A stretch of 28,744 nucleotides of DNA from a virus (IMGVR_UViG_2923307698_000001:1-28744), one strand, 5' to 3'; counted from the stretch's first letter, positions 7,396-27,052 are shown. The notes: generated by a model from the letters alone, not told the origin. Translations and numbers: made by a program.

Positions 7396-7566
7396 ATGTT
7401 TGTCAAACCTGTTAAAGGGCGGTCAGTGCCTGACCCTGCCCGCGGCGACCTTTTGCCCGCCGAAGGGCGAAATGTTGACGAGAACAACTACTGGCTGCGC
7501 CGTGAAGCAGCGGGTGATATCCGGCGCGTGAATAAAAAGGTGAACACCGATGACGATAAGCTTTAA
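7396..7566 (+). CDS. Small conserved protein preceding the sheath (DUF2635-like)
   Basis: 56-aa ORF missing from the ORF track: MFVKPVKGRSVPDPARGDLLPAEGRNVDENNYWLRREAAGDIRRVNKKVNTDDDKL. RBS gagga precedes it; its 3' end overlaps the sheath start. Confidence 0.45.
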   Translation: MFVKPVKGRSVPDPARGDLLPAEGRNVDENNYWLRREAAGDIRRVNKKVNTDDDKL

Positions 7567-9046
7567 CACCATTCCGTCGAATACGCTGGTTCCGTTGTTT
7601 TATGCGGAAATGGATAACCAGGCGGCGAATACTGCACAGGACAGCGGAGCATCGCTGCTGATTGGTCATGCCAATAACGGTGCAGAGATTGTTGCCAACA
7701 GTCTGGTACTGATGCCGTCGGCAGACTATGCACGCCAGATTTGTGGTGCGGGAAGTCAGCTGGCGCGTATGGTCGAGGCTTATCGCCAGACTGACCCGTT
7801 TGGCGAGCTGTATGTGATTGCCGTTCCTGAATCCACAGGCGCGGCGGCAACGGTTACGCTGACGGTGACCGGGGAAGCAACCGAAAGCGGCACGGTGAAT
7901 GTCTATGTGGGACGTACCCGCGTGCAGGCTCCGGTGACCAACGGCGATAACGTCACGACGATTGCCAGCAGTATCCAGGATGCCATCAATGCCGTTCCGA
8001 CTCTGCCGTTTACAGCTTCATCTTCGGCTGGTGTTGTCACGCTGACCGCGCGTCATAAGGGGCTTTGCGGGAATGAAATTCCTGTCAGCCTCAATTACTA
8101 CGGCTTCGGTGGGGGTGAAGTGCTGCCAGCGGGCGTACAGATTGCCGTGGCGACGGGGACCGCCGGAACGGGCGCTCCGGTTCTCACCGGCGCGGTGGCT
8201 GCAATGGGGGATGAGCCGTTTGATTATATCGGTCTGCCGTTCAACGACACGGCCTCCGTTAACACGCTGGTGACCGAGATGAACGATACCAGCGGTCGCT
8301 GGAGCTATGCGCGTCAGCTGTATGGTCATGTGTATACGGCAAAGACCGGCACACTGTCAGAACTGGTGAACGCAGGTGACCAGTTTAACCAGCAGCACAT
8401 CACCCTGGCGGGGTACGAAAAAGAGACCCAGACGCCTGCCGACGAGCTGGCGGCAAGCCGTACCGCCCGCGCAGCGGTGTTTATCCGCAACGATCCGGCA
8501 CGTCCCACGCAGACCGGTGAGCTGGTGGGTATGCTGCCTGCGCCGAAGGGGAAACGGTTCACGATGACCGAGCAGCAGACCCTGCTGTCTCATGGCGTGG
8601 CAACGGCGTATGTCGAAAGCGGGGGGCTGCGCATTCAGCGTGATGTCACCACGTACAGGAAAAATGCTTACGGGGTTGCGGATAACAGCTACCTCGACAG
8701 CGAGACGCTGCATACCAGTGCGTATGTACTGCGCAAACTGAAATCCGTCATTACCAGTAAGTACGGGCGTCACAAGCTTGCCAGCGACGGTACCCGCTTT
8801 GGTCCCGGTCAGGCGATTGTCACCCCGGCGGTAATCAAAGGGGAACTGCTGGCAACCTACCGTCAGCTTGAGCGTGCGGGGATCGTGGAAAACTACGAAC
8901 TGTTTAAGCAGTACCTGGTTGTTGAGCGTGATGCCAGCGATCCGAACCGCCTGAACACGCTGTTCCCGCCTGACTATGTTAACCAGTTGCGTGTTTTTGC
9001 CGTGGTTAACCAGTTCCGTCTTCAGTATTCAGAGGAGTCTGCATAA
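7550..9046 (+). CDS. Contractile tail sheath protein (Mu L-like)
   Basis: 498 aa, followed directly by a 118-aa tube gene. Stop and start overlap (taATG). Confidence 0.8.
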   Translation: MTISFNTIPSNTLVPLFYAEMDNQAANTAQDSGASLLIGHANNGAEIVANSLVLMPSADYARQICGAGSQLARMVEAYRQTDPFGELYVIAVPESTGAAATVTLTVTGEATESGTVNVYVGRTRVQAPVTNGDNVTTIASSIQDAINAVPTLPFTASSSAGVVTLTARHKGLCGNEIPVSLNYYGFGGGEVLPAGVQIAVATGTAGTGAPVLTGAVAAMGDEPFDYIGLPFNDTASVNTLVTEMNDTSGRWSYARQLYGHVYTAKTGTLSELVNAGDQFNQQHITLAGYEKETQTPADELAASRTARAAVFIRNDPARPTQTGELVGMLPAPKGKRFTMTEQQTLLSHGVATAYVESGGLRIQRDVTTYRKNAYGVADNSYLDSETLHTSAYVLRKLKSVITSKYGRHKLASDGTRFGPGQAIVTPAVIKGELLATYRQLERAGIVENYELFKQYLVVERDASDPNRLNTLFPPDYVNQLRVFAVVNQFRLQYSEESA

Positions 9047-9402
9047 TGGCCCGTATCGGGGGAACCTGTTATTTCAAAATTGACGGTCAGCAGCTATCGC
9101 TGACCGGCGGCATTGAGGTGCCCATGAACAGGACGGTCAATGATGACATCATCGGCCTGGACGGTTCAGTGGACCGCAAGGAAACTCACCGTGCGCCTTA
9201 TGTCAAAGGGACCTTCAAGGTGCCGAAGAATTTTCCGGTGAGCAAAATCACCTCGTCTGATGAGATGACCATCACTGCCGAGCTGGCGAACGGTCAGGTC
9301 TATGTATTGTCGTCCGCCTGGCTGCACGGCGAAGCGAACCATAATGCCGAAGAAGGCACGGTTGATCTTGAGTTCCACGGTGAAGAAGGGGATTACCAGT
9401 AA
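9046..9402 (+). CDS. Tail tube protein (Mu M-like)
   Basis: 118 aa immediately downstream of the sheath. Confidence 0.7.
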   Translation: MARIGGTCYFKIDGQQLSLTGGIEVPMNRTVNDDIIGLDGSVDRKETHRAPYVKGTFKVPKNFPVSKITSSDEMTITAELANGQVYVLSSAWLHGEANHNAEEGTVDLEFHGEEGDYQ

Positions 9403-9671
9403 TGAAAGAGCTTGAGTTAAAGAAACCGATTATCGCTCATGGTGAGACACTCTCCGTACTGGAGTTTGATGAACCCACCGGGAAGGATGTCCGCGAGCTG
9501 GGGTATCCCTACCAGATGAATCAGGATGAGTCCGTCAGACTTCTGGCGCATGTGGTGTCGAAATACATTGTGCGGCTGGCGAAAGTGCCGCAAAGCTCTG
9601 TCGACCAGATGTCTCCGGCAGACCTGAATGCAGCGGCGTGGCTTGTGGCTGGTTTTTTCCTCCAGGCCTGA
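9402..9671 (+). CDS. Tail assembly chaperone (G-like); a -1 frameshift gives an extended GT-like product reaching 9820
   Basis: 89-aa ORF between tube and tape measure. The zero frame contains T TTT TTC at 9653..9659; the -1 frame stays open to 9820 and overlaps the tape-measure start. Confidence 0.6.
   Translation: MKELELKKPIIAHGETLSVLEFDEPTGKDVRELGYPYQMNQDESVRLLAHVVSKYIVRLAKVPQSSVDQMSPADLNAAAWLVAGFFLQA
9653..9659 (+). other. Programmed -1 ribosomal frameshift slippery heptamer T TTT TTC
   Basis: Codons GGT TTT TTC in the chaperone frame. A -1 slip enters the frame of ORF 9638..9820 (FFPPGLTAEY...). Confidence 0.55.
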
Positions 9672-9812
9672 CGGCTGAATACCTCACTGATCGCTTCTTT
9701 GACTGCGCCAGCTACTGGCGCATTAATCCCTTCGAATTGCTGAATATGCCGATCAGTGAAATTCCCTTGCTGGTCAGTCAGGCAAACAGGATAGAGCAGG
9801 AGAAACGCACAC

Positions 9813-11645
9813 ATGGCTGAATTTGAGCTTAAGGCGTTGATCACCGGTGTCGACAGGCTTTCTCCCGCGCTGTCGAAAATGCAAAAGAAAATCCGGGGAT
9901 TTAAACGCCAGGCGGAAGAAGCGTCACAGGGTGGGCTGGCGCTTGGTGGCGGACTGGCAGCGGGGCTGACGCTTTCCCTGAAATCTTATGCCGATCAGGA
10001 AAACGCCGCTACCGGGCTGAAAGTCGCCATGATGGATGCGAACGGCGAGGTTGGAAAGAGCTTTCAGGACATCAATAAACTGGCTATTGGCCTGGGTAAC
10101 CAGCTACCCGGTACAACGGCTGATTTCCAGAACATGATGCAGATGCTGGTGCGTCAGGGGATCCCGGCAGAAAACATTCTGGGTGGTGTGGGTAAAGCGA
10201 CAGCTTATCTTGCGGTACAACTGAAAAAAACACCGGAAGCGGCTGCCGAGTTTGCCGCAAAGATGCAGGATGCTACCGGAACGGCCTCAGAAGACATGAT
10301 GGGGCTGTTCGACACAATTCAGAAGGCGTTTTATCTGGGCGTTGACGACACCAACATGCTGTCATTCTTCACTAAAACCAGCTCTGTTCTGAAGATGGTG
10401 AACAAGGACGGTCTTCAGGCTGCACAGAGCCTTGCCCCCATCAGCGTCATGATGGATCAGATGGGGATGAACGGGGAGTCGGCAGGTAACGCCCTGCGAA
10501 AAGTTATCCAGTCCGGATTAAGCGTTAAGAAAATCAGGGACGTCAATAAAATCATGGCCCGCCAGAAACTCGGGGTACAGCTCGATTTTACTGACGGCAA
10601 AGGGAGTTTTGGCGGTCTTGATAACATGTTCAGGCAACTGGCAAAGCTGCGAAAACTGACCGACGTTAAACGAACTGGTGTACTTAAGGCAATATTTGGT
10701 GATGATGCCGAAACCCTTCAGGTGGTCAATGCGCTGATCGATAAAGGAAAGGATGGCTACGATCAGATCCAGCAGAAGATGAATAAACAGGCCAGCCTGA
10801 ATAAACATGTTCAGGCACAGCTTGGTACGCTGTCCAACCTGTGGGAGGCAATGACGGGGACCGCAACTAACGGCCTTGCGGCTATTGGCGGCGCATTTTC
10901 TGGTGACGCCAAAAATATCACGCAATGGCTGGGGGAGTTAGGGGAAAAATTCACGAAGTTTGCGGATGAAAATCCCCGGGTTATTCGCGGCGTCGTCGGG
11001 CTTGCTGCCGGTCTTGCGATTCTGAAACTGGGATTGATGGGCGTGGGCAGTGCCATCAGTATCGTCAGCAGGATCATGTCGATGACGCCGATTGGCATGA
11101 TTGCGACGGCGATTGCCTTGGCTGCGGGATTAATTATCACTAACTGGGATGTTGTCGGACCTTATTTTAAGAAACTCTGGGAAACCATTAGTCCTTATTT
11201 TGAGGCTGGCTGGGAACTTCTGAAGAAGGTTTTTGCCTGGTCGCCGCTGGGGATGGTGATCAATAACTGGGGACCGGTTGTTAAGTGGTTTCAGGATATG
11301 TGGGATAAGCTGAAGCCGATTATTGAATGGTTTACCGACAGTTCCGGTGACACGGTCGATGCCATTAACTCGGCGCAGTGGGGCGCGGGTGCTTATGATG
11401 CTTATGGGACGGGAATACCGCCACGGGGATACACTCCTTATCCGGAGGTGGATCCGGCTCAGGCAAACAACGCCTCCGGTGCCACAGGCCCGAATCCTTT
11501 CATGATTAATAAAGCTACCGCGCCAAAAGTTGATGGTGAGATCAAGGTATCATTTATAAATATGCCATCAGGTATGCGGGTTACGGAAACACGCTCCAGT
11601 GGCATTGATATAAATCACGATGTTGGCTATACCCGATTTTGGTAG
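9813..11645 (+). CDS. Tail tape measure protein (Mu-like module)
   Basis: 610 aa, largely alpha-helical composition with a C-terminal hydrophobic stretch (VVGLAAGLAILKLGLMGVGSAISIV). Standard position after the chaperone. Confidence 0.8.
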   Translation: MAEFELKALITGVDRLSPALSKMQKKIRGFKRQAEEASQGGLALGGGLAAGLTLSLKSYADQENAATGLKVAMMDANGEVGKSFQDINKLAIGLGNQLPGTTADFQNMMQMLVRQGIPAENILGGVGKATAYLAVQLKKTPEAAAEFAAKMQDATGTASEDMMGLFDTIQKAFYLGVDDTNMLSFFTKTSSVLKMVNKDGLQAAQSLAPISVMMDQMGMNGESAGNALRKVIQSGLSVKKIRDVNKIMARQKLGVQLDFTDGKGSFGGLDNMFRQLAKLRKLTDVKRTGVLKAIFGDDAETLQVVNALIDKGKDGYDQIQQKMNKQASLNKHVQAQLGTLSNLWEAMTGTATNGLAAIGGAFSGDAKNITQWLGELGEKFTKFADENPRVIRGVVGLAAGLAILKLGLMGVGSAISIVSRIMSMTPIGMIATAIALAAGLIITNWDVVGPYFKKLWETISPYFEAGWELLKKVFAWSPLGMVINNWGPVVKWFQDMWDKLKPIIEWFTDSSGDTVDAINSAQWGAGAYDAYGTGIPPRGYTPYPEVDPAQANNASGATGPNPFMINKATAPKVDGEIKVSFINMPSGMRVTETRSSGIDINHDVGYTRFW

Positions 11646-11736
11646 CCAGGATTCCCCTCACAGGTATTGCTGGTTGTAAGTCATAAATAGAGTGATAGAA
11701 TTAATGCACATTTAGAAAAATGTTAATAGGCGAAAA
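11646..11736 (+). promoter_or_regulatory. Putative sigma70 promoter and operator-like palindrome for the moron
   Basis: -35-like TTGTAA (11674..11679), 16-bp spacer, extended -10 TGaTAGAAT (11693..11701). Perfect palindrome ACATTT-N4-AAATGT at 11707..11722, just before ATG 11737. Confidence 0.3.
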
Positions 11737-12268
11737 ATGAAAGGCTATATCACAGCAAGTGTAATTCTTGGAGCAGCGGCTATTTTTTTCATCTCTCATA
11801 ATCTCTGGCAACATCTCCTTTAAAGATGAACATATTATTCAGTTATCTGGAGGAGCCATAAAACTTGGTGATGTTTATAAAGAAAATAAATTGATAAGTG
11901 CAAAGATTATTTTTCCAGATAATCAGGGTGAACAGATTCTTGTTGTCGACGGCAATCCTGAAAACTTTAAGGAGGATTTTCAGGAGAAATTAAATAAAGT
12001 AATAAAAACTTTAAATGCGTCAAAGAAAAAAGATGAAGAGAAAGTTAGCCTGGATAATTTAAGTGTTATTGAAGAGTCTAAACTAGAGCTCGTTTCTGCG
12101 GTGCGTTACTCTGCTCAGTATGTTCCTATGTTTACTCTGACGCTGGACAAAAAAGAAATTACCATGCCTAAAAATACGGTAATATTTCCATTTGCCAGCG
12201 ATGAAACAGCTAAGTATTTAAATGAACAACAGCAAAAGTATAAAGATTCGTTGTTTCTGACTCGCTAA
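11737..12268 (+). CDS. AT-rich moron: hypothetical protein with hydrophobic N-terminus, frame split at a T7 tract
   Basis: ATG 11737 encodes MKGYITASVILGAAAIFF..., which stops after 28 codons. The +1 frame continues from the T7 run (11783..11789) as ...SSLIISGNISFKDEH... to 12268 (the ORF-track entry 11768..12268 uses a TTG start). AT-rich relative to flanking tail genes. Own terminator follows. Confidence 0.5.
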
Positions 12269-12287
12269 TTAATAAAATTCATTACAA

Positions 12288-12318
12288 GGCCACCTTCTAA
12301 TAGGTGGCTTTTTTATTT
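12288..12318 (+). terminator. Rho-independent terminator after the moron
   Basis: Stem gccacct / aggtggc with loop tctaat, followed by ttttttatttt. Confidence 0.6.
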
Positions 12319-12329
12319 TCGGAGTGTAT

Positions 12330-13658
12330 ATGACGTGGAAAGACAGGCTTCAGGATGCGTCATTTCGAGGTGTGCCGTTTAAGGTTGAAGAAGAAAGTGC
12401 GGGAACCGGTCGCCGTGTGGAAACACATGAATACCCGAACCGCGACAAACCCTATACCGAAGACCTGGGGAAAATCACTTTTCGCCCGTCCATCACGGCT
12501 TATGTGGTGGGAGATGACTGCTTTGACCAGCGCGATCGCCTGATTGACGCGCTGAATAAACCCGGTCCCGGCACGCTTGTCCATCCGACATACGGTGAGC
12601 TGAAAGTCTGTGTTGACGGGGAAGTTCGGGTCAGCACATCGAAAAGTGAAGGGCGTATTGTCCGCTTTGACCTGAAGTTTGTCGAAGCAGGAGAACTCTC
12701 TTACCCCACATCAGGTGCGGCGACGGCGCAGACGCTGATGTCATCCTGTTCTGCATTGGATAACTGCATCAGTGACAGCTTCAGCGGTTTCAGTATCGAT
12801 GGCGTGGCGGATTTTGTGCAGAACGACGTTATCGGTAATGCCAGCACAATGCTTGGGTATGTTTCTGATGCGATGAAAGTGGTGGATTCTGCCGTATCGG
12901 ATGCTGCCAGGCTGTTGCAGGGGGATATCTCGGTACTTCTGCCGCCACCATCGTCAGGCAAAAATTTCGTTGAGCAGGTGCAGAAAATGTGGCGTACCGG
13001 GAAACGCCTTTATGGTAACGCCAGCGACCTGGTCACCATGATCAAAACGCTTTCCGGTGTCAGCCTCGGCAGCGATCTGCAACCGCGCGGCGTCTGGAAA
13101 ACGGACAGTAAAACCACCGCCACGGCGACGCAGCAGCGTAACGTGGTTGCCAGCACCCTTCGTACGACCGCAATCAGCGAAGCGGCGTATGCCGTCACCC
13201 GATTGCCTGCGCCAACAACTTCCGCGGTGATGCAGAATGCCGCAGTGGGGCAGGCAACAACAGCTGCGCAGAGCACCGGCTGGCCTTCCGTCACGCATCC
13301 GGCACTGAACAATGCACCGGCGGTGAAAAACACGGTTGATCTGCCGACGTGGGAAGAACTGACTGACATTCGCGACACACTGAATACGGCAATTGATAAG
13401 GAGTTGTCCCGTACAACCAGTGATGCGCTGTTTCTGGCGCTGCGCCGGGTGAAAGCAGATCTGAATGCGGATATCAACACGCGCCTTGAACAGTCTGCAC
13501 GGATCATTCAGCGCACACCGGATGAGGTTTTACCCGCGCTGGTGCTGGCGGCGACCTGGTTTGATAACGCGGCGCGTGACGCGGACATTATCCGGCGTAA
13601 TGCCATTACGCATCCCGGCTTTGTGCCGGTGATCCCTCTGAAGGTGCCAGTGCAATGA
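12330..13658 (+). CDS. DNA circularisation protein (Mu N/gp43-like)
   Basis: N-terminus MTWKDRLQDASFRGVPFKVEEE fits the family N-terminal motif. ATG 12330 with RBS ggag 5 nt upstream; the ORF-track start at GTG 12324 is less likely. Confidence 0.7.
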   Translation: MTWKDRLQDASFRGVPFKVEEESAGTGRRVETHEYPNRDKPYTEDLGKITFRPSITAYVVGDDCFDQRDRLIDALNKPGPGTLVHPTYGELKVCVDGEVRVSTSKSEGRIVRFDLKFVEAGELSYPTSGAATAQTLMSSCSALDNCISDSFSGFSIDGVADFVQNDVIGNASTMLGYVSDAMKVVDSAVSDAARLLQGDISVLLPPPSSGKNFVEQVQKMWRTGKRLYGNASDLVTMIKTLSGVSLGSDLQPRGVWKTDSKTTATATQQRNVVASTLRTTAISEAAYAVTRLPAPTTSAVMQNAAVGQATTAAQSTGWPSVTHPALNNAPAVKNTVDLPTWEELTDIRDTLNTAIDKELSRTTSDALFLALRRVKADLNADINTRLEQSARIIQRTPDEVLPALVLAATWFDNAARDADIIRRNAITHPGFVPVIPLKVPVQ

Positions 13659-14734
13659 ACGATAACGTCACGCTACGGGTAAATGGCCGGGAGTGGAATG
13701 GCTGGACATCGGTGCGCATCGGTGCCGGTATTGAACGGCTGGCGCGGGATTTCAGTGTGGAGATCACCCGCCAGTGGCCGGGAGATGAGGGTATCACCAC
13801 GCTTCAGCCGCGCATTAAAAACGGTTCAAAAGTGGAAGTGCTGATTGGTGATGAGCTGGTGATCACCGGCTGGGTGGAGGCGACTCCCGTTCGTTACGAT
13901 GCCCGTTCGGTCAGCACCGGTATTGCCGGACGCAGTCTGACCGCTGACCTGATTGACTGTGCAGCCGAACCGACACAGTTTAACGGACGATCGCTGGTAC
14001 AGATTGCGCAGGCGCTTACTGCGCCTTTCGGCATTGAGGTGGTGAACAGCGGTGCGCCGTCGGGTGTTATTCCTGATGTCCAGCCTGATCACGGTGAAAC
14101 GGTGATCGAGGTGATCAACAAAATACTCGGTCAGCAGCAGGCACTGGCTTACGACGATCCGCACGGCAGGCTGGTGATTGGCGGTATTGGCTCAACGCGG
14201 GCACATACCGCGCTGGTACTTGGGGAAAACATCCTTTCCTGCGATACGGAGAAGAGTATCCGGGAGCGGTTTTCAGTTTACCAGGTGGCGGGGCAGCGTG
14301 CCGGAAACGACGATGATTTCGGTGAGGCCACCACCACCGCGCTGCGGGCCCGCACAGAGGACGCATTTATTGCCCGTTACCGTCCGATGTATATCAGGCA
14401 GACAGGGCAGGCCACGGGGGCTGGCTGTATTGCGCGTGCTGACTTTGAAGCCCGGCAACGGGCGGCGCGGACGGATGAAACCACCTATGTGGTGCAGGGC
14501 TGGCGACAGGGTAACGGTACGCTGTGGCAGCCCAACCAGCGGGTGATTGTCTTTGATCCGGTCTGTGGTTTCGACAATACCGAACTGCTTGTTTCGGAAG
14601 TCACGTTTACTCAGGACCAGAACGGCACCCTGACGGAAATCCGTGTCGGCCCGCCTGATGCTTATCTGCCTGAACCCGAAGCCCCCGGCGCGCGGAAAAA
14701 GAAAAAAGCCAGAGTACAGGAGGACCCGTTCTGA
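13655..14734 (+). CDS. Baseplate hub / tail protein (Mu P/gp44-like, late control D family)
   Basis: 359 aa, coupled start, position after N. Confidence 0.7.
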   Translation: MNDNVTLRVNGREWNGWTSVRIGAGIERLARDFSVEITRQWPGDEGITTLQPRIKNGSKVEVLIGDELVITGWVEATPVRYDARSVSTGIAGRSLTADLIDCAAEPTQFNGRSLVQIAQALTAPFGIEVVNSGAPSGVIPDVQPDHGETVIEVINKILGQQQALAYDDPHGRLVIGGIGSTRAHTALVLGENILSCDTEKSIRERFSVYQVAGQRAGNDDDFGEATTTALRARTEDAFIARYRPMYIRQTGQATGAGCIARADFEARQRAARTDETTYVVQGWRQGNGTLWQPNQRVIVFDPVCGFDNTELLVSEVTFTQDQNGTLTEIRVGPPDAYLPEPEAPGARKKKKARVQEDPF

Positions 14735-15282
14735 TGAGGACGATTGAAGCCATGCAGCGACAACTCCTCGGCCTGATTGGGCGGGCCGTGGTGAAAAGCA
14801 TCAGTGCCGCCACGAAATGTCAGACCGTGGATGTGTCCCTGATTGCCGGTGAACCCAAAGCCGGGGTTGAACATCTTGAACCCTACGGTTTTACCGCAAG
14901 GGCAAACAGCGGTGCGGAAGCGGTTGTGTTGTTTCCGGATGGCGACCGTTCTCATGCGGTGGTTGTTACGGTGTCGGACCGTCGCTACCGCCTGAAAGGG
15001 CTGCAGACGGGCGAGGTGGCTGTCTATGACGATCAGGGGCAGTCCGTGACGCTGACCCGGGAGGGGATCGTGGTGGACGGTGCAGGTAAAACGATCACGT
15101 TTCGCAATGCACCTGAAGCACGTTTTGAAATGGACCTGGAAGTGACCGGACAGGTGAAAGACCTGTGCGACTCCGGCGGCACCACCATGTCAGCGATGCG
15201 GCTTGCCTATAACGGGCATCGTCACAGAGAGAACGGTCAGGGCAGTAACACCGACAAACCGGATAAAGCGATGGAGGCATGA
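14734..15282 (+). CDS. Baseplate assembly protein V-like (Mu gp45-like spike)
   Basis: 182 aa with C-terminal DSGGTTMS motif reminiscent of V-family proteins. Coupled start. Confidence 0.6.
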   Translation: MRTIEAMQRQLLGLIGRAVVKSISAATKCQTVDVSLIAGEPKAGVEHLEPYGFTARANSGAEAVVLFPDGDRSHAVVVTVSDRRYRLKGLQTGEVAVYDDQGQSVTLTREGIVVDGAGKTITFRNAPEARFEMDLEVTGQVKDLCDSGGTTMSAMRLAYNGHRHRENGQGSNTDKPDKAMEA

Positions 15283-15707
15283 TGGAACTGTGGCTGACGG
15301 TGAACGGTAAACGCACCTGCGCCAGCGCACCGCTGGATCCGCTGACCCGCTCCGTGGTGATTTCCCTGTTTACCTGGCGGCGGGCGGAGCCTGATGACAA
15401 CGCCGACGTCCCGATGGGATGGTGGGGGGATACCTGGCCTGCGGTACAGAATGACCGTTACGGCTCCCGACTGTGGCTGCTTCAGCGCAGCAAACTGACC
15501 AATCAGCTGGTGCAGACGGTAAGGGGGTATATCCGCGAATGCCTGCAATGGATGATTGATGATTGCGTGGTGTCCCGTATTGATCTGGATATCCGCCGCA
15601 CCGGGATTAATGAACTGGGTAACAGTATCACTCTCTGGCGTCGTGACGGACCGGTAATGATTTCTTTTGATGATCTGTGGAGTGCGATAACGCATGGCGG
15701 ACAGTGA
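15279..15707 (+). CDS. Baseplate wedge protein (Mu gp46 / gp25-like)
   Basis: 142 aa between the V-like and J-like genes. Confidence 0.55.
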   Translation: MMELWLTVNGKRTCASAPLDPLTRSVVISLFTWRRAEPDDNADVPMGWWGDTWPAVQNDRYGSRLWLLQRSKLTNQLVQTVRGYIRECLQWMIDDCVVSRIDLDIRRTGINELGNSITLWRRDGPVMISFDDLWSAITHGGQ

Positions 15708-17327: not shown

Positions 17328-17330
17328 TCC

Positions 17331-18409: not shown

Positions 18410-18417
18410 TCTCAGGA

Positions 18418-18775: not shown

Positions 18776-18783
18776 AGATATAC

Positions 18784-19151: not shown

Positions 19152-19218
19152 CGTTTATGAAAATGCAGAGATAACGGCTAACTGGCATCATCTCCGGTTT
19201 TTATTCAGGGGGATGATC

Positions 19219-19785
19219 ATGCTTATTGGCTATGTACGCGTGTCAACAAATGACCAGAACACCGATTTGCAACGTAATGCACTGAACTGCGCGGGATGTG
19301 AGCGGATTTTTGAGGATAAAATCAGTGGCACTAAGTCCGACAGACCGGGGCTGAAAAAGCTGCTCAGGACACTATCGGCAGGAGACACGCTGGTTGTCTG
19401 GAAGCTGGACAGGTTGGGGCGCAGTATGCGGCATCTTGTTACGCTGATAGAGGAGTTGCGCCAGCGTGGTGTGAATTTCCGAAGCCTGACTGACAGTATT
19501 GATACCAGTACCCCAATGGGCCGTTTCTTTTTTCATGTCATGGGTGCCCTGGCTGAAATGGAACGCGAACTGATAGTTGAACGTACCAGGGCAGGGCTGG
19601 CTGCAGCTCGTGCCAAAGGCAGAGTAGGTGGACGCCGTCCTAAGTTGACCACCGAACAGTGGGCACAGATTGGGCGTTTACTCGAGGCCGGAGAATCAAG
19701 ACAGCGTATTGCACTGATTTTTGATGTGGGTGTTTCCACAATTTATAGAAAATTTCCGGCAAATAAGAGTAATGAATCCCCCTGA
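19219..19785 (+). CDS. pin: Serine recombinase DNA invertase (Pin/Gin/Hin family)
   Basis: MLIGYVRVSTNDQNTDLQRNAL...DTLVVWKLDRLGRSM...GRFFFHVMGALAEMERELIVERT...RRPKLT...STIYRKFPA carries the catalytic Ser and C-terminal HTH seen in Hin/Gin/Pin invertases. RBS aggggga precedes ATG 19219. Confidence 0.85.
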   Translation: MLIGYVRVSTNDQNTDLQRNALNCAGCERIFEDKISGTKSDRPGLKKLLRTLSAGDTLVVWKLDRLGRSMRHLVTLIEELRQRGVNFRSLTDSIDTSTPMGRFFFHVMGALAEMERELIVERTRAGLAAARAKGRVGGRRPKLTTEQWAQIGRLLEAGESRQRIALIFDVGVSTIYRKFPANKSNESP

Positions 19786-19833
19786 ATCAGCATTATTTTG
19801 ATTATCCCTGCAAGTAGACAAATACCGTCATTT

Positions 19834-19851
19834 TGTGTGAATAACGGTACA
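19834..19851 (+). promoter_or_regulatory. TGT-N12-ACA dyad (Ogr/Delta-type late-promoter activator site) upstream of FI
   Basis: TGTgtgaataacggtACA lies ~75 bp upstream of the FI ATG (19928), which has RBS aggagg. Ogr-like activator is encoded at 26834..27052. Confidence 0.4.
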
Positions 19852-19927
19852 ACTGCGCTTAGCTGTTTGTCAGGCACAATCACTTCAACATAGGGCGAAG
19901 CCTAATCCAATCAGGAGGTTCGCCACT

Positions 19928-21100
19928 ATGGCTCAGGATTACCACCACGGGGTGCGCGTTGTTGAAGTCAACGAAGGCACCCGATCCATTACCACGGTGA
20001 GCACCGCCATCGTGGGCATGGTCTGCACGGGCGATGATGCCGATGCAAAAATGTTTCCTCTTAACAAACCTGTGCTGATCACTGATGTGCTGACTGCCAG
20101 CGGTAAAGCGGGTGAGTCCGGCACGCTGGCCCGTTCGCTGGATGCCATCGCTGACCAGGCAAAACCCGTGACCGTTGTTGTGCGTGTGCCGCAGGGTGAA
20201 ACGGAAGAAGAAACCACGACCAATATCATCGGCGCAGTGACTGCTGAAGGTAAAAAAACAGGCATGAAAGCTCTGTTATCTGCCCAGTCACAGCTCGGCG
20301 TTAAACCGCGCATTCTCGGCGTGCCAGGTCACGATAACAAAGCCGTTGCGACTGAGTTGCTGAGCGTGGCGCAAAGCCTGCGTGGGTTTGCTTACCTGTC
20401 AGCGTATGGCTGCAAGACGGTACAGGAGGCGATCACTTACCGTGAAAACTTCAGCCAGCGCGAAGGAATGCTGATCTGGCCCGACTTTACTGGCTGGGAC
20501 ACGGTGCTGAATGCCGAAGCAACGGCATATGCCACCGCCCGTGCACTTGGTCTGCGTGCCAAAATTGATGAGCAGACCGGGTGGCACAAAAGCCTGTCCA
20601 ACGTGGGCGTGAACGGTGTCACCGGAATTTCTGCAGATGTGTTCTGGGATCTGCAGGACCCGGCAACCGATGCAGGTCTGCTGAACCAGAACGACGTCAC
20701 CACGCTTGTGCGTAAAGACGGTTTCCGCTTCTGGGGTTCCCGCTGTCTGAGCGATGATCCGCTTTTTGCCTTCGAAAACTACACCCGCACGGCGCAGGTG
20801 CTGACGGACACAATGGCAGAAGCACACATGTGGGCGGTGGATAAACCGCTTAACCCGTCGCTGGCCCGCGACATTATCGAAGGTATCCGCGCCAAAATAC
20901 GCAGCCTGGTCAGTCAGGGCTATCTCATTGGTGGTGATTGCTGGCTGGATGAGTCGGTGAACGACAAAGACACGCTGAAAGCCGGAAAACTCACCATCGA
21001 CTATGACTACACGCCAGTGCCGCCACTTGAAAATCTGATGCTGCGCCAGCGCATCACCGATCAGTACCTGGTGAATTTCGCCAGCCAGGTCAGCGCGTAA
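19928..21100 (+). CDS. FI: P2-type tail sheath protein FI
   Basis: 390 aa. N-terminus [40 protein letters not shown] and C-terminus ...[27 protein letters not shown] match P2 FI as I recall it. Confidence 0.85.
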
Positions 21101-21109
21101 GGGGACAAC

Positions 21110-21625
21110 ATGGCTTTACCACGCAAATTAAAACATCTGAACCTGTTTAACGACGGGAACAACTGGCAGGGGATCGTTGAGTCGCTGACGCTGCCGAAAT
21201 TCACCCGCAAATATGAGAAGTATCGCGGCGGCGGAATGCCGGGTGCAGTGGATGTGGATCTGGGGCTTGATGACAGTGCGCTGGACACAGAATTTTCCAT
21301 TGGTGGTACTGAACTGCTGCTGTTTAAGCAGATGGGCAAAGCCACGGTAGATGGCATTCAGCTGCGCTTTACCGGCTCTATCCAGCGTGACGATACCGGG
21401 GAAGTGCAGGCCGTGGAGCTTGTGGTGCGTGGACGTCACAAAGAAGTGGATTCCGGCGAGTGGAAGACGGGCGAAAGCAACACCACCAAAGTGACCAGTA
21501 CCAACAGCTACGCGAAGCTGACCATCAATGGTGAGGTGCTCTATGAAGTGGACCTTATCAACATGGTGGAAATTGTGGACGGTGTGGACCTGATGGAAGC
21601 GCACCGCAACGCCCTCGGCCTCTGA
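21110..21625 (+). CDS. FII: P2-type tail tube protein FII
   Basis: 171 aa, MALPRKLKHLNLFNDGNNWQG..., directly after FI. Confidence 0.8.
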   Translation: MALPRKLKHLNLFNDGNNWQGIVESLTLPKFTRKYEKYRGGGMPGAVDVDLGLDDSALDTEFSIGGTELLLFKQMGKATVDGIQLRFTGSIQRDDTGEVQAVELVVRGRHKEVDSGEWKTGESNTTKVTSTNSYAKLTINGEVLYEVDLINMVEIVDGVDLMEAHRNALGL

Positions 21626-21636
21626 TGTATCTGAAC

Positions 21637-21654
21637 GGCGCGGGATACCGCGCC
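21637..21654 (+). other. GC stem-loop between FII and E
   Basis: ggcgcgg gata ccgcgcc is a perfect 7-bp stem with no T-tract. Likely an mRNA processing or attenuation element. Confidence 0.3.
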
Positions 21655-21679
21655 AGAACCCAATTTACAGGACAGCAAA

Positions 21680-21982
21680 ATGAGCGATAAGCAGACTGAA
21701 AAGACTATTCAACTGGATACCCCCATCAAGCGCGGTAAAACAGAAATCACCGAAATTGTGCTGCGTAAACCGCAGTCCGGTGCGCTGCGCGGTACACGCC
21801 TGCAGGCCATTATGGATATGGATGTGAACGCGATGATGACCGTGATCCCCCGTATCTCCAGTCCGGCACTGACTGCACAGGAAATTGCAGAGATGGACCC
21901 GGCAGATCTCACTGCCATGTCGGTTGAGGTTGTCACTTTTTTGTTGAAGAAGTCGGTGCTTGCCGGTTTACCGACAGCCTGA
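21680..21982 (+). CDS. E: P2-type tail assembly chaperone E
   Basis: 100 aa between tube and tape measure. Contains the slippery site T TTT TTG. Confidence 0.7.
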   Translation: MSDKQTEKTIQLDTPIKRGKTEITEIVLRKPQSGALRGTRLQAIMDMDVNAMMTVIPRISSPALTAQEIAEMDPADLTAMSVEVVTFLLKKSVLAGLPTA

Positions 21983-22116
21983 CGGTTGACGATCTGGTGG
22001 CTGATATCGCCACCATCTTTCACTGGCCGCCATCCGTTACTGACGTTATGCCGCTGACCGAAGTGCTGGAATGGCGGTATAAAGCGATTCAGAGAAGCGG
22101 GGCCAACGATGAGTGA
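21680..22116 (+). CDS. E+E' frameshift product (-1 shift at 21937..21943)
   Basis: Zero-frame codons ACT TTT TTG give the heptamer T TTT TTG at 21937..21943. The -1 frame reads VEEVGACRFTDSL...RYKAIQRSGANDE to TGA at 22114..22116, overlapping the T start at 22109. Confidence 0.6.
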
Positions 22117-25100
22117 TAACAACCTGCGGCTGCAGGTCATTCTTAATGCGGTTGACAAACTCACCCGCCCATTCCGTGTTGCACAGGCCAGTTCGAAAGA
22201 GCTGGCTGGCGCAATTCAGAATACCCGAAACAGCCTCAAAGAACTGAATAAGCAGGCTGGCAGAATTGATGAATTTCGCAAGACGCGCTCGCAACTAGCC
22301 ATAACAGCCAACAACCTGAACGCAGCCCGCGAAGAGGCGGCAAAACTCGCCACACAATTTGCTGCCACTAACAGGCCAACCGCCGCGCAGGCAAAGTTAT
22401 TCAGTCAGGCCAAAACACGAGTACAGGAACTTCAGCAGACCTATAACGGCTTGTTGGGGGCGGTCCAGAGACAACGTCAGGCACTTAAAGAATCAGGGAT
22501 TGATACCAGACAACTCAGTAGTGCCCAGCGAGAACTTAAGAAAAATGCTGAAGAAACAAGGCAGGCAATGGAGGGCCAGCAAAAAGCACTTAAACGTCTG
22601 GGTGAACAACAGGCACGGATGAACGCTGCCAGAGAACAATACTCAAGACGGCTTGAAGTGCGCGATCGCATCGCAGGAGCCGGAGCCACTACCACGGCTG
22701 CAGGGCTGGCAATGGGTGCGCCAGTGATGGCAGCAGTAAAAAGCTATACCAGCATGGAAGATGCCATGAAAGGTGTGGCAAAGCAGGTCAATGGTCTGCG
22801 TGATGATAATGGCAACCGCACTGCGCGTTTTTACGAAATGCAGGATGCCATCAAGGCTGCCAGCGAACAGTTGCCGATGGAAAACGGTGCTGTGGACTTT
22901 GCCGCACTGGTTGAAGGTGGTGCGCGCATGAACGTCGCAAATCCTGACGACAGCTGGGAAGACCAGAAACGTGACCTGCTGGCCTTCGCCAGCACGGCAG
23001 CAAAGGCGGCAACAGCCTTTGAGCTGCCAGCGGATGAACTGTCAGAAAGTCTGGGGAAAATCGCCCAGCTCTACAAAATCCCTACCCGCAATATTGAACA
23101 GCTCGGTGATGCGCTGAACTATCTGGATGATAACGCCATGTCGAAAGGGTCAGACATCATTGATGTCATGCAACGCCTGGGCGGTGTGGCAGATCGTCTG
23201 GATTATCGTAAAGCGGCGGCGCTGGGTTCCACCTTCCTGACACTGGGCGCTGCGCCGGAGGTTGCTGCCAGTGCAGCAAACGCGATGGTGCGTGAATTGT
23301 CCATTGCCACCATGCAAAGTAAGAGTTTCTTTGAAGGGATGAATCTGCTGAAACTCAATCCTGAAGTGATTGAAAAGCAGATGACGAAGGATGCGATGGG
23401 AACTATCCAGCGTGTGCTGGAGAAGGTGAACGCACTGCCGCAGGACAAGCGTCTGTCTGCCATGACCATGTTGTTTGGTAAAGAGTTTGGTGATGATGCA
23501 GCGAAACTGGCAAACAACCTTCCGGAACTGCAGCGCCAGCTAAAACTGACAGCGGGCAATGATGCGCTCGGTTCCATGCAGAAAGAATCCGACATCAACA
23601 AAGACTCACTTTCCGCTCAGTGGTTGCTGGTCAAAACCGGAGCGCAGAACACCTTCAGCAGCCTGGGCGAAACGCTGCGCCAGCCGCTGATGGATATTCT
23701 GTACACGGTAAAAAGCATCACGGGGGCGTTGCGCCGCTGGGTGGAAGCTAACCCGGAACTGACAGGCACACTGATGAAAGTAGCGGCTGTTGTGGCTGCG
23801 GTTACCGTAGGCCTCGGCACCTTAGCGGTGGCGCTGGCTGCAGTGCTGGGGCCGCTGGCAGTCATCCGTCTGGGATTCTCTGTGCTGGGTATCAAAACGT
23901 TACCTTCCGTTACGGCAGCAGTAACACGAACCAGCAGCGCGTTGTCCTGGTTAGCTGGCGCTCCACTGGCACTGCTGCGACGCGGGCTTGCTTCATCGGG
24001 CAACGCAGCGGGTTTACTTACTGCGCCGTTGTCGTCTTTGCGCCGCACCGCATCACTGACGGGGAATGTCCTGAAAACTGTAGCAGGTGTGCCGGTTGCA
24101 CTGTTGCGGTCTGGATTATCCGGTTTACGTGCGGTTGCTGTGATGTTTATGAATCCACTGGCAGCACTACGCGGTGGACTGGCTGCCGCAGGCGCGGTGC
24201 TGCGTGTGCTGGCATCCGGTCCGCTGGCGATGCTGCGCGTTGCCCTGTATGCCGTATCTGGTCTGTTAGGTGCTCTGCTCAGTCCGATAGGTCTTGTGGT
24301 TACTGCACTGGCGGGCGTGGCGCTGGTTGTCTGGAAATACTGGCAACCCATCACCGCATTTCTCGGTGGCGTGGTGGAAGGATTCAAAGCGGCGGCAGGT
24401 CCCATCAGTGCTGCATTCGAACCGCTTAAGCCCGTGTTCCAGTGGATTGGCGACAAAGTACAGGCGTTGTGGGGCTGGTTTACTGATCTGCTGACGCCTG
24501 TTAAGTCGACCTCTGCCGAACTGCAGAGCGCAGCGGCAATGGGGCGACGATTCGGGGAGGCACTGGCGGAAGGGCTGAATATGGTCATGCATCCGTTGGA
24601 CTCCCTGAAATCCGGCGTTTCCTGGTTGCTGGAGAAACTCGGTATTGTCAGTAAAGAGGCTGCAAAGGCGAAACTGCCGGAAAGCGTGACGCGTCAGCAA
24701 CCTGCGACGGTGAATGCAGACGGTAAAGTGATGATGCCATCGGGTGGTTTTCCGTCATGGGGATATGGCTTTGCGGGGATGTATGACAGCGGCGGCTATA
24801 TCCCGCGCGGGCAGTTCGGCATTGTCGGTGAAAACGGGCCTGAAATTGTCAACGGTCCGGCAAACGTGACCAGTCGGAGAAATACAGCTGCACTGGCTGC
24901 CGTTGTTGCCGGAATGATGGGCGTTGCTGCCGCGCCTGCAGAGCTTCCGCCGTTACATCCTTTGGCACTTCCCGCGAAAGGCGGCGAAGCGATGGTGAGT
25001 CGTGCAGCCACTGTGCCGCCCGCTCAACGGATTGAGGCACCGACGCAGATCATCATCCAGACGCAGCCAGGACAAAGTGCGCAGGATATTGCGCGGGAGG

Positions 25101-25186
25101 TGGCACGCCAGCTTGATGAACGTGAACGCAGGCTGAAGGCAAAAGCCAGGAGTAACTACAGCGATCAGGGGGGATACGACGCATGA
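22109..25186 (+). CDS. T: P2-type tail tape measure protein T
   Basis: 1025 aa. Long helical N-terminal half, Ala/Leu/Gly-rich hydrophobic repeats in the middle. Lies between E/E' and U. Confidence 0.8.
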   Translation: MSDNNLRLQVILNAVDKLTRPFRVAQASSKELAGAIQNTRNSLKELNKQAGRIDEFRKTRSQLAITANNLNAAREEAAKLATQFAATNRPTAAQAKLFSQAKTRVQELQQTYNGLLGAVQRQRQALKESGIDTRQLSSAQRELKKNAEETRQAMEGQQKALKRLGEQQARMNAAREQYSRRLEVRDRIAGAGATTTAAGLAMGAPVMAAVKSYTSMEDAMKGVAKQVNGLRDDNGNRTARFYEMQDAIKAASEQLPMENGAVDFAALVEGGARMNVANPDDSWEDQKRDLLAFASTAAKAATAFELPADELSESLGKIAQLYKIPTRNIEQLGDALNYLDDNAMSKGSDIIDVMQRLGGVADRLDYRKAAALGSTFLTLGAAPEVAASAANAMVRELSIATMQSKSFFEGMNLLKLNPEVIEKQMTKDAMGTIQRVLEKVNALPQDKRLSAMTMLFGKEFGDDAAKLANNLPELQRQLKLTAGNDALGSMQKESDINKDSLSAQWLLVKTGAQNTFSSLGETLRQPLMDILYTVKSITGALRRWVEANPELTGTLMKVAAVVAAVTVGLGTLAVALAAVLGPLAVIRLGFSVLGIKTLPSVTAAVTRTSSALSWLAGAPLALLRRGLASSGNAAGLLTAPLSSLRRTASLTGNVLKTVAGVPVALLRSGLSGLRAVAVMFMNPLAALRGGLAAAGAVLRVLASGPLAMLRVALYAVSGLLGALLSPIGLVVTALAGVALVVWKYWQPITAFLGGVVEGFKAAAGPISAAFEPLKPVFQWIGDKVQALWGWFTDLLTPVKSTSAELQSAAAMGRRFGEALAEGLNMVMHPLDSLKSGVSWLLEKLGIVSKEAAKAKLPESVTRQQPATVNADGKVMMPSGGFPSWGYGFAGMYDSGGYIPRGQFGIVGENGPEIVNGPANVTSRRNTAALAAVVAGMMGVAAAPAELPPLHPLALPAKGGEAMVSRAATVPPAQRIEAPTQIIIQTQPGQSAQDIAREVARQLDERERRLKAKARSNYSDQGGYDA

Positions 25187-25668
25187 TGATGGTGCTGGGA
25201 TTGTACGTGTTTATGCTGCGCACTGTGCCGTATCAGGAACTGCAGTATCAACGCAGCTGGCGACATGCGGCAAACAGCCGGGTCAACCGACGTCCGTCCA
25301 CGCAGTTTCTGGGACCGGACAACGACATGCTGACGCTTTCTGGTGTTCTTATGCCGGAGATAACAGGCGGCAGGCTGTCGTTGCTGGTACTGGAGCAGAT
25401 GGCAGAGCAGGGGAAAGCATGGCCCCTGATTGAAGGCAGCGGCACGATTTACGGCATGTATGTGATTGAGGGACTGAATCAGACTAAAACGGAGTTTTTC
25501 CGCGACGGTATGCCGCGCCGGATTGAGTTCACCCTGTCGCTCAAACGGGTGGATGAATCCCTGTCCGATATGTTCGGTGATCTCAGTGCGCAACTGAATA
25601 ATCTGCAGGACACGGCAACGTCTGCCTTAAGCGATATCAGTAAAACGGTGGGAGGGCTGCTGTCGTGA
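25183..25668 (+). CDS. U: P2-type tail protein U
   Basis: 161 aa, coupled start (ATGATGATG), between T and D. Confidence 0.7.
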   Translation: MMMVLGLYVFMLRTVPYQELQYQRSWRHAANSRVNRRPSTQFLGPDNDMLTLSGVLMPEITGGRLSLLVLEQMAEQGKAWPLIEGSGTIYGMYVIEGLNQTKTEFFRDGMPRRIEFTLSLKRVDESLSDMFGDLSAQLNNLQDTATSALSDISKTVGGLLS

Positions 25669-26765
25669 ATTTCAGCTCTGAACTGCTTAACAAAGGCAAC
25701 AAAACTCCCGCATTCAGCATCAGTATTGAGGGCAGGGATATCACCACTGTGCTGGATAACCGCCTGATGAGTTTGACGCTGACGGATAATCGGGGCTTTG
25801 AAGCAGACCAGCTTGATCTGGAGCTGGACGACGCCGACGGAAAAATCGTGCTGCCGCGCCGTGGTGCGGTTATTACGCTGGCGCTGGGCTGGAAGGGGCA
25901 GCCGCTTTTCCCGAAAGGGGCATTCACGGTGGACGAGATTGAACACACTGGCGCACCGGACCGCCTGACTATCCGGGCGCGAAGTGCTGATTTTCGTGAA
26001 ACGCTGAATACCCGCCGTGAAAAGTCGTGGCACAAGACCACCGTTGGGGAAGTGGTGAAGGAAATAGCTGCGCGGCACAAACTGAAGATGGCATTGGGTA
26101 AAGACCTGTCAGATAAACCCGTGGAACATATAGACCAGACCAATGAGAGTGACGGCAGTTTTCTGATGCGACTGGCGCGCCAGTACGGTGCTATTGCGTC
26201 GGTGAAAAATGGCAATCTGTTATTCATCCGGCAGGGACAGGGCAAAAGCGCCAGCGGTAAACCACTGCCGGTGATCACTATCACGCGTAAGGACGGCGAC
26301 AGTCACCGCTTTACCCTGGCAGATCGCGGAGCCTATACGGGCGTCATTGCCAGCTGGTTGCATACCCGCGAACCCGCGAAGAAAGAAAGCACCACGGTGA
26401 AGCGTAAGCGCAGAACTAAGAAGCAGAAGAAAGAGCCGGAAGCGAAGCAGGGCGATTACCTGGTGGGGACGGATGAAAACGTGCTGGTACTTAATCGCAC
26501 TTATGCCAACCGGAGCAACGCCGAACGAGCGGCGAAAATGCAGTGGGAACGCCTGCAACGCGGTGTTGCGTCATTCTCGCTACAACTGGCGGAAGGTCGG
26601 GCAGATCTCTACACGGAAATGCCTGTGAAGGTCAGTGGCTTTAAACAGCCAATAGATGATGCGGAATGGACCATTACGACTCTGACACATACCGTCAGCC
26701 CGGATAACGGTTTTACGACCAGTATTGAACTTGAAGTGAAAATTGGTGATCTTGAAATGGAGTAA
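25665..26765 (+). CDS. D: P2-type tail protein D (late control D family)
   Basis: 366 aa. GTG start overlaps the U stop (GTGA), RBS ggtgggaggg. Lys-rich internal segment. Last gene before ogr. Confidence 0.75.
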   Translation: MNFSSELLNKGNKTPAFSISIEGRDITTVLDNRLMSLTLTDNRGFEADQLDLELDDADGKIVLPRRGAVITLALGWKGQPLFPKGAFTVDEIEHTGAPDRLTIRARSADFRETLNTRREKSWHKTTVGEVVKEIAARHKLKMALGKDLSDKPVEHIDQTNESDGSFLMRLARQYGAIASVKNGNLLFIRQGQGKSASGKPLPVITITRKDGDSHRFTLADRGAYTGVIASWLHTREPAKKESTTVKRKRRTKKQKKEPEAKQGDYLVGTDENVLVLNRTYANRSNAERAAKMQWERLQRGVASFSLQLAEGRADLYTEMPVKVSGFKQPIDDAEWTITTLTHTVSPDNGFTTSIELEVKIGDLEME

Positions 26766-26833
26766 ATGGTTCTCAATATTGATATTTTGTGTATCATTGC
26801 AATGATTCTGATAGCAAAGGTAGGGATCTGGAT

Positions 26834-27052
26834 ATGATGAATTGTCCAAAGTGTGGTCATGCGGCGCACACAAGGAGCAGTTTTCAAGTAACAGAAAGCA
26901 CCAAAGAGCGTTACTGCCAGTGCCAAAATATTAACTGCGGGAGCACTTTTGTTACCCATGAAACAGTGGTCCGGTTTATTGTGACACCTGCAGTGATTGC
27001 CACAGCCCCTCCACATCCATTGCCAGGTGGTCAGGGCCATATGAATTTTTAA
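26834..27052 (+). CDS. ogr: Ogr/Delta-family zinc-finger late transcription activator
   Basis: MMNCPKCGHAAHTRSS...KERYCQCQNINCGSTF...: C-X2-C-X22-C-X4-C spacing and ~72 aa length match P2 Ogr. Position at the prophage right end next to att, as in P2. Confidence 0.8.
   Translation: MMNCPKCGHAAHTRSSFQVTESTKERYCQCQNINCGSTFVTHETVVRFIVTPAVIATAPPHPLPGGQGHMNF

Follow-up and report, generated by a model that had tools for sequence, protein, structure and literature searches.

An island at ssrA joining an SfV-like late region to the right arm of a P2-like phage: very probably a chimeric defective prophage formed through a shared invertible fibre cassette

The stretch IMGVR_UViG_2923307698_000001:1-28744, referred to as the window (the whole 28,744 nt analysed, whose positions are used below), contains an island of phage genes with two contractile-tail modules between an IS3-family insertion sequence (IS) and the tmRNA gene ssrA. 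Our results indicate that this island is very probably a chimeric defective prophage, originating from two temperate ssrA-integrating phages that recombined via a shared invertible tail fibre cassette, and further shaped by an IS-linked deletion. Positions 2477-17616 come from the late region of an SfV-like phage and contain head genes of the HK97 type as well as a complete Mu-like tail in SfV-like gene order. Positions 17617-27684 come from the P2-like phage Cartapus, whose right arm contributes the fibre tip, two chaperones, pin, FI, FII, E/E', T, U, D, and ogr. The initial annotation had left two explanations side by side, a recombinant graveyard in which the exchange took place in the fibre/invertase region or the selective retention of a tail-like particle, and the former is supported by comparative alignment, which maps the crossover to 17617-19111.

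Domains were assigned using Pfam, PHROGs, Rfam, and ARAGORN, and sequences were compared by means of blastn, tblastn, BLASTP, and mismatch maps. The loci compared were L001 and L023 (both E. coli LZYWN_4), L003 (strain DAM), L005, L006, L011, L015, L019, and LF82. The features of the window are compiled in Table 1.

The left half shares 97-98% nucleotide identity with the Shigella phages SfV, SfII, and SfI (97.0-97.6% over 7396-17689), which are known as “SfV-like” lambdoid myoviruses (PMC3603311). Even higher values were obtained for intact prophages, namely 98.3% for the ssrA-resident L001 and 99.73% for L015. In total, 40 substitutions separate the left block from L015, 35 of them being located within only 1.6 kb (14682-16302) and the other five being spread over approximately 13 kb. 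Such clustering suggests that a mosaic patch was taken up from another lineage of SfV-like phages; the patch covers the 3' end of gpP, gp45, gp46, and the 5' half of gp47. The tail genes follow the order known from Mu (sheath, tube, chaperone, tape measure, DNA_circ, GpP, Gp45, Gp46, Gp47, and Gp48), and Gp48 is followed by a short fibre and two opposed Caudo_TAP chaperones. The hallmarks of the SfV-like group are therefore represented by HK97-type head genes (the portal being damaged), the Mu-order tail set, and the high identity to the type members. A lambdoid early/regulatory region, lysis cassette, terminase, and integrase were not found in the window, which makes the left half an SfV-like remnant rather than a complete member.

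The right half is 99.96% identical to the deposited genome of Cartapus, a P2/Fels-2-like prophage of E. coli LF82 that is spontaneously induced at a low level (PMC9928086). Compared to LF82 itself, only two differences in 10.4 kb were detected over 17617-28056 (one substitution and one homopolymer indel), and none at all over 19928-27052. The gene order FI-FII-E-E'-T-U-D-ogr, followed by attR, is that of Cartapus, and the right end of LF82, consisting of ogr, an open reading frame (ORF) of 160 amino acids (orf160), ssrA, and smpB, has exactly the same layout as the window. This near-identity substantiates the earlier proposal that the block from pin to ogr mirrors a P2-like right arm. The blastn match covers positions 13342-23463 of the Cartapus record only, about one third of the phage. 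The other virion, lysis, and control genes of a P2-like phage (Q, P, O, N, M, L, X, lysis, R, S, V, W, J, I, int, C, and A) are missing. No tblastn match in the window was obtained for the Cartapus genes X, R, S, V, W, J, I, holin, endolysin, int, and cI, and H is present only as its last 117 residues. Lacking X, R, S, V, W, J, I, and most of H, the P2-like set is unable to build a tail alone; a complete tail module including baseplate and fibres is encoded by the Mu-like set and not by the P2-like set.

Pfam matches on both sets verified that two contractile-tail cores are present where they had been annotated, and that their genes encode tail proteins. The two sheaths feature no BLASTP-detectable similarity (E = 0.19), indicating two tail lineages and not a duplication; the two tail chaperones are 23% identical.

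The transition between both halves was located by comparison to LF82 and L011. In the left crossover site of the invertase, the window deviates from LF82 only at 17614 and 17616, where it is of the SfV type. L011, an SfV-like prophage, equals both the window and LF82 over 17259-19111, except for two changes private to the window, and its first SfV-specific differences were found at 19112, 19120, and 19126, where the window is of the Cartapus type. Being SfV-type at 17614/17616 and Cartapus-type from 19112 onwards, the window must have acquired its joint somewhere within 17617-19111. Accordingly, the modules are not joined at the invertase, as initially annotated, but in the fibre cassette just upstream; pin is wholly of the Cartapus type, being identical to LF82 and approximately 83% identical to pinE of SfV-like prophages. 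The Cartapus H protein matched 17640-17990 with 100% identity (tblastn), and the same fibre of 220 amino acids is also encoded by ordinary SfV-like prophages, including L011 at ssrA. Furthermore, the chaperone accessions of the SfV-like prophage in strain DAM are the same as those of LF82. Since the parental sequences are perfectly identical over 1,495 bp, plain homologous recombination, presumably of the RecA type, is sufficient to explain the fusion.

SfV-type sequence gives way to Cartapus-type sequence at the core of the 26-bp left crossover site, whose outer half is of the SfV type (17614, 17616); all positions further inward are of the Cartapus type. Such a boundary would also be expected if Pin or the SfV-like pinE product had recombined the directly oriented left crossover sites of two tandem prophages and deleted the DNA in between, and the activity of Pin in this lineage, apparent from the inverted cassette in a sibling assembly, is in agreement with such an event. 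However, the boundary coincides with the point where the homology of any SfV-type fibre gene with Cartapus begins, and a homologous exchange anywhere in the 1,495 bp would look alike. Enzymes of the Gin/Hin/Cin/Pin family show a strong preference for inversion between inverted sites of a single supercoiled domain, and deletions between direct repeats located far apart are rare. This family preference for inversion over deletion likewise speaks against an invertase-mediated fusion, which we regard as unlikely. A crossover fixed at the invertase site was also dropped as a firm conclusion, since L011 revealed 1.5 kb of perfect identity between the parents.

The 26-bp crossover sites, representing imperfect dyads, are embedded in a 68-nt inverted repeat (17615-17682 and 19089-19156). 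In the sibling assembly L019, the segment 17615-19156 is found on the opposite strand (L019 15216-16758) between collinear flanks, and L006 and the window share the other orientation. The differing orientation in sibling drafts indicates a recent Pin-mediated inversion in the defective prophage; Pin has thus inverted the cassette since the fusion, within the hybrid lineage. Whichever way the cassette is oriented, the called fibre gene continues the reading frame of the SfV-type stem. The view that every tail ORF is intact held for the others, for example for the Mu-like tail module, which is free of indels compared to its relatives, but not for the silent alternate fibre chaperone on the minus strand, which is frameshifted at 18447. 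The T missing from a T homopolymer at this position is present in 6 out of 6 other sequences compared, including both sibling hybrids, and its deletion, being private to the window, may represent a recent slip or a sequencing error.

To evaluate the occurrence of the hybrid, 5,426 complete E. coli genomes were searched for the joint, which was detected in none of them; elsewhere, the hybrid was found only in sibling draft assemblies. L006 (GCA_038435545.1, 85-kb contig) equals the window over 7331-27992, except for the T at 18447, and L019 (GCA_038435605.1) is collinear in both flanks, carries the cassette inverted, and has its contig end inside the IS. The contigs of both siblings are 85,467 bp long. 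A misjoining of separate prophages through the shared 1.5-kb cassette during assembly is suggested by the location of the joint, which falls in a sequence that would form a repeat in a genome harbouring the two prophages in complete form. However, the same joint is present in two other assemblies, on 85-kb contigs and in both cassette orientations, the window is collinear from the ypjA::IS border of the hot-spot through to ssrA, as for a single locus, and short-read assemblers normally break at such repeats instead of bridging them. An assembly artefact is consequently the least probable of all explanations considered here. The hybrid is a real structure, and its absence from the complete genomes indicates a rare, lineage-restricted arrangement.

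On its left side, the island is delimited by the IS, whose right end adjoins the truncated portal gene. The homology of window positions 1-2476 to other genomes ends at 2476, and SfV-like homology begins at 2477, directly past the terminal repeat of the IS. The stretch 1-2476 occurs with 100% identity in about 198 complete E. coli genomes, in which it is located next to ileY-ypjC, at the distal border of the ssrA integration hot-spot, and the same IS end adjoins a CP4-57-like island instead of the portal gene. An IS end bordering on different DNA in other genomes implies an IS-adjacent deletion or a recombination between two IS copies. The alignment to L001 starts at L001 position 4677, the portal coding sequence of L001 starting at 4478, so that the break lies 199 bp inside the gene (codon ~67). 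The 1-base deletion at 2904 in the remaining portal sequence was also found in L019. No sigma-70-like promoter was found at the joint between IS and portal gene.

L001 and L023 possess the integrase, the immunity/early genes, the antiterminator, the lysis genes, and the terminase, all of which are gone from the window. Both ends of the window are chromosomal, and all DNA between the IS and ssrA is phage DNA; the window thus covers the island from one border to the other, and all of its genes are included in the inventory. Head, lysis, replication, and integrase functions had initially been described as absent or broken; this is correct for lysis, replication, and integrase genes (as well as the terminase), which are gone, and for the broken portal, but the protease, capsid, connector, head-closure, and neck genes (3496-6830) are intact.

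The 3' end of ssrA serves both phage types as integration site, and in each case the fibre genes point toward ssrA. The right ends of L001 and L011 comprise fibre, cassette, pinE, cargo, and ssrA, the attP of Cartapus includes the last ~45 nt of ssrA, and in L023, 33 nt of ssrA are repeated next to the integrase end of the SfV-like prophage. Just past this bounding repeat, a second gene with an integrase domain was observed (L023 13506-14934), which suggests another, older element integrated in series at the hot-spot. A putative SfV scar in LF82 was rejected: the LF82 match runs ~156 nt past the att core into sequence that is located beside ssrA in SfV-like prophages, but this stretch was found in 4,170 out of 5,426 genomes, including K-12 and O157:H7, and is not diagnostic.

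From these data, the following origin of the island is proposed. The parents were an SfV-like lambdoid myovirus and a P2-like phage essentially identical to Cartapus. Both phage types integrate at the ssrA 3' end, tail genes toward ssrA, and both can be equipped with the same Pin-invertible host-range cassette (fibre tip, chaperone, opposed chaperone, and opposed fibre tip). Homologous recombination within the identical 1.5 kb of this cassette would have fused the late region of the SfV-like phage with the right arm of Cartapus. This may have occurred by deletion between tandem prophages, the SfV-like one being distal and Cartapus being located beside ssrA, or by the insertion of a circular SfV-like genome, through a single crossover, into a Cartapus prophage already present. 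The observed order, with SfV-like DNA distal and Cartapus beside ssrA with its own attR flank, fits both routes; their products are the same, and the DNA that would distinguish them was lost with the IS-linked deletion. Either before or after the fusion, everything up to portal codon ~67 would have been lost or recombined away at the IS3-family element residing in ypjA, including the integrase(s), the immunity/early genes, the late-gene antiterminator, the lysis genes, and the terminase.

Several points weigh against this scenario. The tandem intermediate (SfV-like right end, att core, and Cartapus integrase end) was found in none of the 5,426 complete genomes when searched with two synthetic junction queries, which combined an SfV-like right end of the L001 or the L011 type with the Cartapus integrase end. 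As for the exact SfV-like parent, L015 matches the left block but possesses a different cassette, and L011 matches the cassette, but its contig starts only at window position 17259. The left limit of the Cartapus-type sequence is the invertase crossover site, as an invertase-mediated fusion would also predict. Moreover, the Mu-like tail genes are only presumed to be transcriptionally silent, as judged from the loss of the lambdoid late promoter region.

The second explanation proposed initially was that of a domesticated tail-like particle (tailocin), in which the host would keep the complete Mu-like tail with the Cartapus receptor-binding switch, and possibly the P2-like core, to produce headless killing particles. 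This is consistent with the Mu-like tail module being complete from terminator to fibres, without indels compared to intact relatives, and with the presence of pin and two fibre alternatives that are both in frame with the SfV-type stem. In addition, tailocins derived from Mu/SfV-like tails are known in Pseudomonas (PMC4542187). However, all head genes have been lost in the Pseudomonas tailocin (PMC4542187), whereas the capsid, protease, connector, and head-closure genes of the island are still intact. A scan of the ORFs from the IS to ssrA (2477-27684) revealed no holin, endolysin, or spanin, and no regulator except ogr. The P2-like set is devoid of V, W, J, I, R, S, and X, and the arrangement, occurring in none of the 5,426 complete genomes and only in sibling drafts, is not conserved at a fixed locus across strains. 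Furthermore, the left block (outside the mosaic patch) and the right block differ from intact prophages by only five substitutions in ~13 kb and one substitution in 10.4 kb, respectively. With so few substitutions, there was too little time for decay, and intact ORFs are no signal of selection. The dN/dS (nonsynonymous to synonymous) check suggested for the tail genes was carried out against L015 (30 synonymous and 10 nonsynonymous differences) and was discarded as uninformative on retention, because these differences reflect divergence or exchange among functional phages and not evolution after the death of the prophage. Selective retention as a tailocin is thus highly improbable; the island represents ordinary prophage decay and not a domesticated tail weapon.

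A slim chance is given to the complete Mu-like tail with its switchable, Cartapus-derived cassette still being expressed, for example by read-through or in trans during the induction of other lambdoid prophages, which would yield tail-like particles or donate fibres or tails to co-resident phages. If so, the island would be a very early stage of tailocin formation from two phage families, caught in the act.

Prophage mosaicism, IS-linked decay, and the ssrA hot-spot are all well established, and the island adds nothing new in kind. It provides, however, a base-level example of a portable invertible fibre cassette, common to unrelated families at one integration site, bridging a prophage fusion. 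It also illustrates that two intact tail modules are not evidence of domestication when their halves are only few substitutions away from intact prophages.

Further observations refer to individual features. In the right half, a TGT-N12-ACA dyad was considered as a candidate Ogr-dependent late promoter element; this motif occurs 5 times in the window vs. 7.75 times expected, a count not above chance, and only its position upstream of FI is suggestive. The FI-D operon has this dyad at the expected distance from FI, and promoter-like sites precede ogr. The accessory gene CARTA_32, which remains beside ssrA in the hybrid, matches PHROG 2561 (‘DNA ligase’) and, weakly, BRCT. A Cartapus gene annotated likewise (LF82_783) was reported to be expressed 15-fold above background in LF82 lysogens (PMC9928086). 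Some function could therefore remain in the wiring of the FI-D operon and in the accessory gene. In the left half, the ORF at 11768-12268, located between the tape measure and DNA-circularisation genes, is low in GC content (about 38%) and present in many SfV-like prophages, but not in that of strain DAM (L003), and probably constitutes an accessory gene within the tail operon. Its classification as a pseudogene was rejected: it seemed frameshifted compared to L001, but many intact prophages share the form of 166 amino acids as their usual allele (255 blocks).

Within the IS3-family element, an Rfam match to isrC, an Hfq-binding small RNA, was obtained (150 bits, 2286-2408, minus strand); it lies wholly in the element and overlaps the 5' end of its first transposase ORF. 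The segment 1-44 looks like a distal att-type relic, that is, a displaced repeat at the outer border of the ssrA hot-spot; in this case, the pinH and ypjA fragments and the IS would themselves be older layers of inserted DNA. Its hairpin is the same as the terminator hairpin supplied by the Cartapus attR flank (27649-27676). In L005 (19975-20044), the segment extends further leftward. The spacer between smpB and ssrA (28057-28257) shows about 45 differences per 200 bp to LF82 and is nearly identical to LZYWN_4 (L001) and L011. As the flanking phage DNA is identical to LF82 and the spacer is not, the host backbone is a different one, and the Cartapus-like phage is shared across host backgrounds.

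Table 1. Features identified in the window, with coordinates, strand, and supporting evidence.
Feature	Position	Strand	Evidence and remarks
Degenerate copy of ssrA 3' end (~12 nt) with ssrA terminator hairpin	1-44	-	Self-match to 27655-27699, 95.6%; matches Cartapus attP
pinH-like invertase gene fragment, conserved chromosomal flank	221-361	+	83% to pinE of L001; partial recombinase in L005
Autotransporter adhesin gene ypjA/ehaD, 5' fragment cut by IS	787-1218	+	Pfam AIDA; incomplete YpjA/EhaD in L005
IS3-family insertion sequence, 1,258 bp	1219-2476	-	rve and HTH_Tnp_1; 26-bp terminal inverted repeats 1219-1244 / 2451-2476
SfV-like portal gene, first ~200 bp gone, frameshifted by 1-base deletion at 2904	2477-3518	+	Phage_portal over two ORFs
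Intact SfV-like head/neck genes: S78 prohead protease, major capsid (4161-5366, PF05065), orf66, head-tail connector, head closure, neck/tail-completion protein	3496-6830	+	Pfam, PHROGs; no indels vs L001 or L015
Complete Mu-like tail module, SfV-like parent	6827-17327	+	Pfam; tail terminator 6827-7387, then DUF2635
Mu-like sheath	7550-9046	+	PF04984 1.8e-35, PF17482, PF17481
Mu-like tube	9046-9402	+	PF10618 2.4e-33
Mu-like tail chaperone	9402-9671	+	PF10109
Mu-like tape measure	9813-11645	+	PF10145
Accessory ORF, 166 amino acids	11768-12268	+	phrog_5485 (function unknown)
DNA-circularisation protein, GpP hub, Gp45 spike, Gp46, Gp47, Gp48	In this order downstream of 11768-12268		DNA_circ_N; Baseplate_J
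Tail fibre gene, 220 amino acids	17331-17993	+	N-terminal ~96 codons SfV-type; C-terminal 117 codons = Cartapus H residues 357-473
Left invertase crossover site, CTCTCGAAAACC-TT-GGTTTGGGAGAA	17608-17633	+	Outer half SfV-type, inner half common to both
Interval holding the recombination joint, 1,495 bp	17617-19111		Identical between L011-type SfV-like prophage and Cartapus; mismatch maps vs LF82, L011
Fibre assembly chaperone, currently expressed orientation	17990-18409	+	Caudo_TAP 3e-22; WP accession shared by LF82 and DAM
Alternate fibre assembly chaperone, frameshifted	18381-18775	-	Caudo_TAP; one T missing at 18447
Alternate fibre C-terminal (receptor-binding) segment	18784-19191	-	Gp53-like_C 2.2e-15
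Right invertase crossover site, TTCTCCCAAACC-AA-CGTTTATGAAAA	19138-19163	+	Inverted repeat 17615-17682 / 19089-19156
pin, serine DNA invertase, 188 amino acids, Cartapus-type	19219-19785	+	Resolvase PF00239 3.9e-53, HTH_7 PF02796 2.1e-15
Candidate Ogr-dependent late promoter element, TGT-N12-ACA dyad	19834-19851	+	About 85 bp upstream of FI start codon
P2-like FI sheath	19928-21100	+	Pfam; Cartapus/LF82 annotation
P2-like FII tube	21110-21625	+	PF04985 8.8e-60
P2-like E	21680-21982	+	Pfam; Cartapus/LF82 annotation
P2-like E'	21997-22116	+	Pfam; Cartapus/LF82 annotation
P2-like T tape measure	22109-25186	+	Pfam; Cartapus/LF82 annotation
P2-like U	25183-25668	+	Pfam; Cartapus/LF82 annotation
P2-like D hub	25665-26765	+	Pfam; Cartapus/LF82 annotation
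ogr	26834-27052	+	Pfam; Cartapus/LF82 annotation
Cartapus accessory gene CARTA_32, ‘putative exonuclease’	27079-27561	-	Cartapus/LF82 annotation; PHROGs
Cartapus-type attR flank, supplying ssrA terminator hairpin (27649-27676)	27562-27684	-	Sequence match
ssrA (tmRNA), integration target	27685-28047	-	ARAGORN; Rfam RF00023, 295.8 bits
smpB	28262-28744	-	Pfam SmpB 1.5e-57

Compared to known systems, the island shares its gene order over 2477-17616, at 97-98% identity, with the SfV-like phages SfV, SfII, SfI, and SfIV, and differs from them by the missing early, regulatory, lysis, terminase, and integrase genes, the damaged portal, and the DNA of another family to the right of the fibre stem. 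With Cartapus (Peduoviridae, Elveevirus cartapus), it has the variable part of H through ogr, the accessory gene, the attR flank, and the chromosomal site in common, but not the head, lysis, tail-completion, baseplate, integrase, immunity, and replication genes. The cassette resembles those of the Gin/Cin/Pin/Hin systems (Mu G, P1 C, and e14 P segments) in its serine invertase, inverted 26-bp sites, opposed fibre-tip/chaperone sets, and occurrence in both orientations; here, however, cassette and invertase originate from a P2-like phage and now serve the fibre stem of an SfV-like tail.

Like the R-type tailocins (R/F pyocin and the Mu/SfV-related R-syringacin), the island is a chromosomal contractile-tail cluster unable to make infectious phage, and the R/F pyocin locus of P. 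aeruginosa also harbours two tail modules side by side. Differences from the R-type tailocins are the absence of lysis genes and dedicated regulators, the lack of conservation from strain to strain, the retained head genes, and the incompleteness of one module. Inter-prophage recombination in E. coli is described for the defective prophage pool of O157 Sakai (PMC2669165) and for prophages integrating into prophages (PMC8112680), and, as far as the abstracts of these reports go, the island results from the same process, with recombination between co-resident prophages and IS-linked deletion leading to non-inducible mosaics. According to these abstracts and general knowledge, the previous cases mostly represent lambdoid phages recombining with lambdoid phages, whereas the partners of the island belong to two families and were brought together via a portable fibre cassette.

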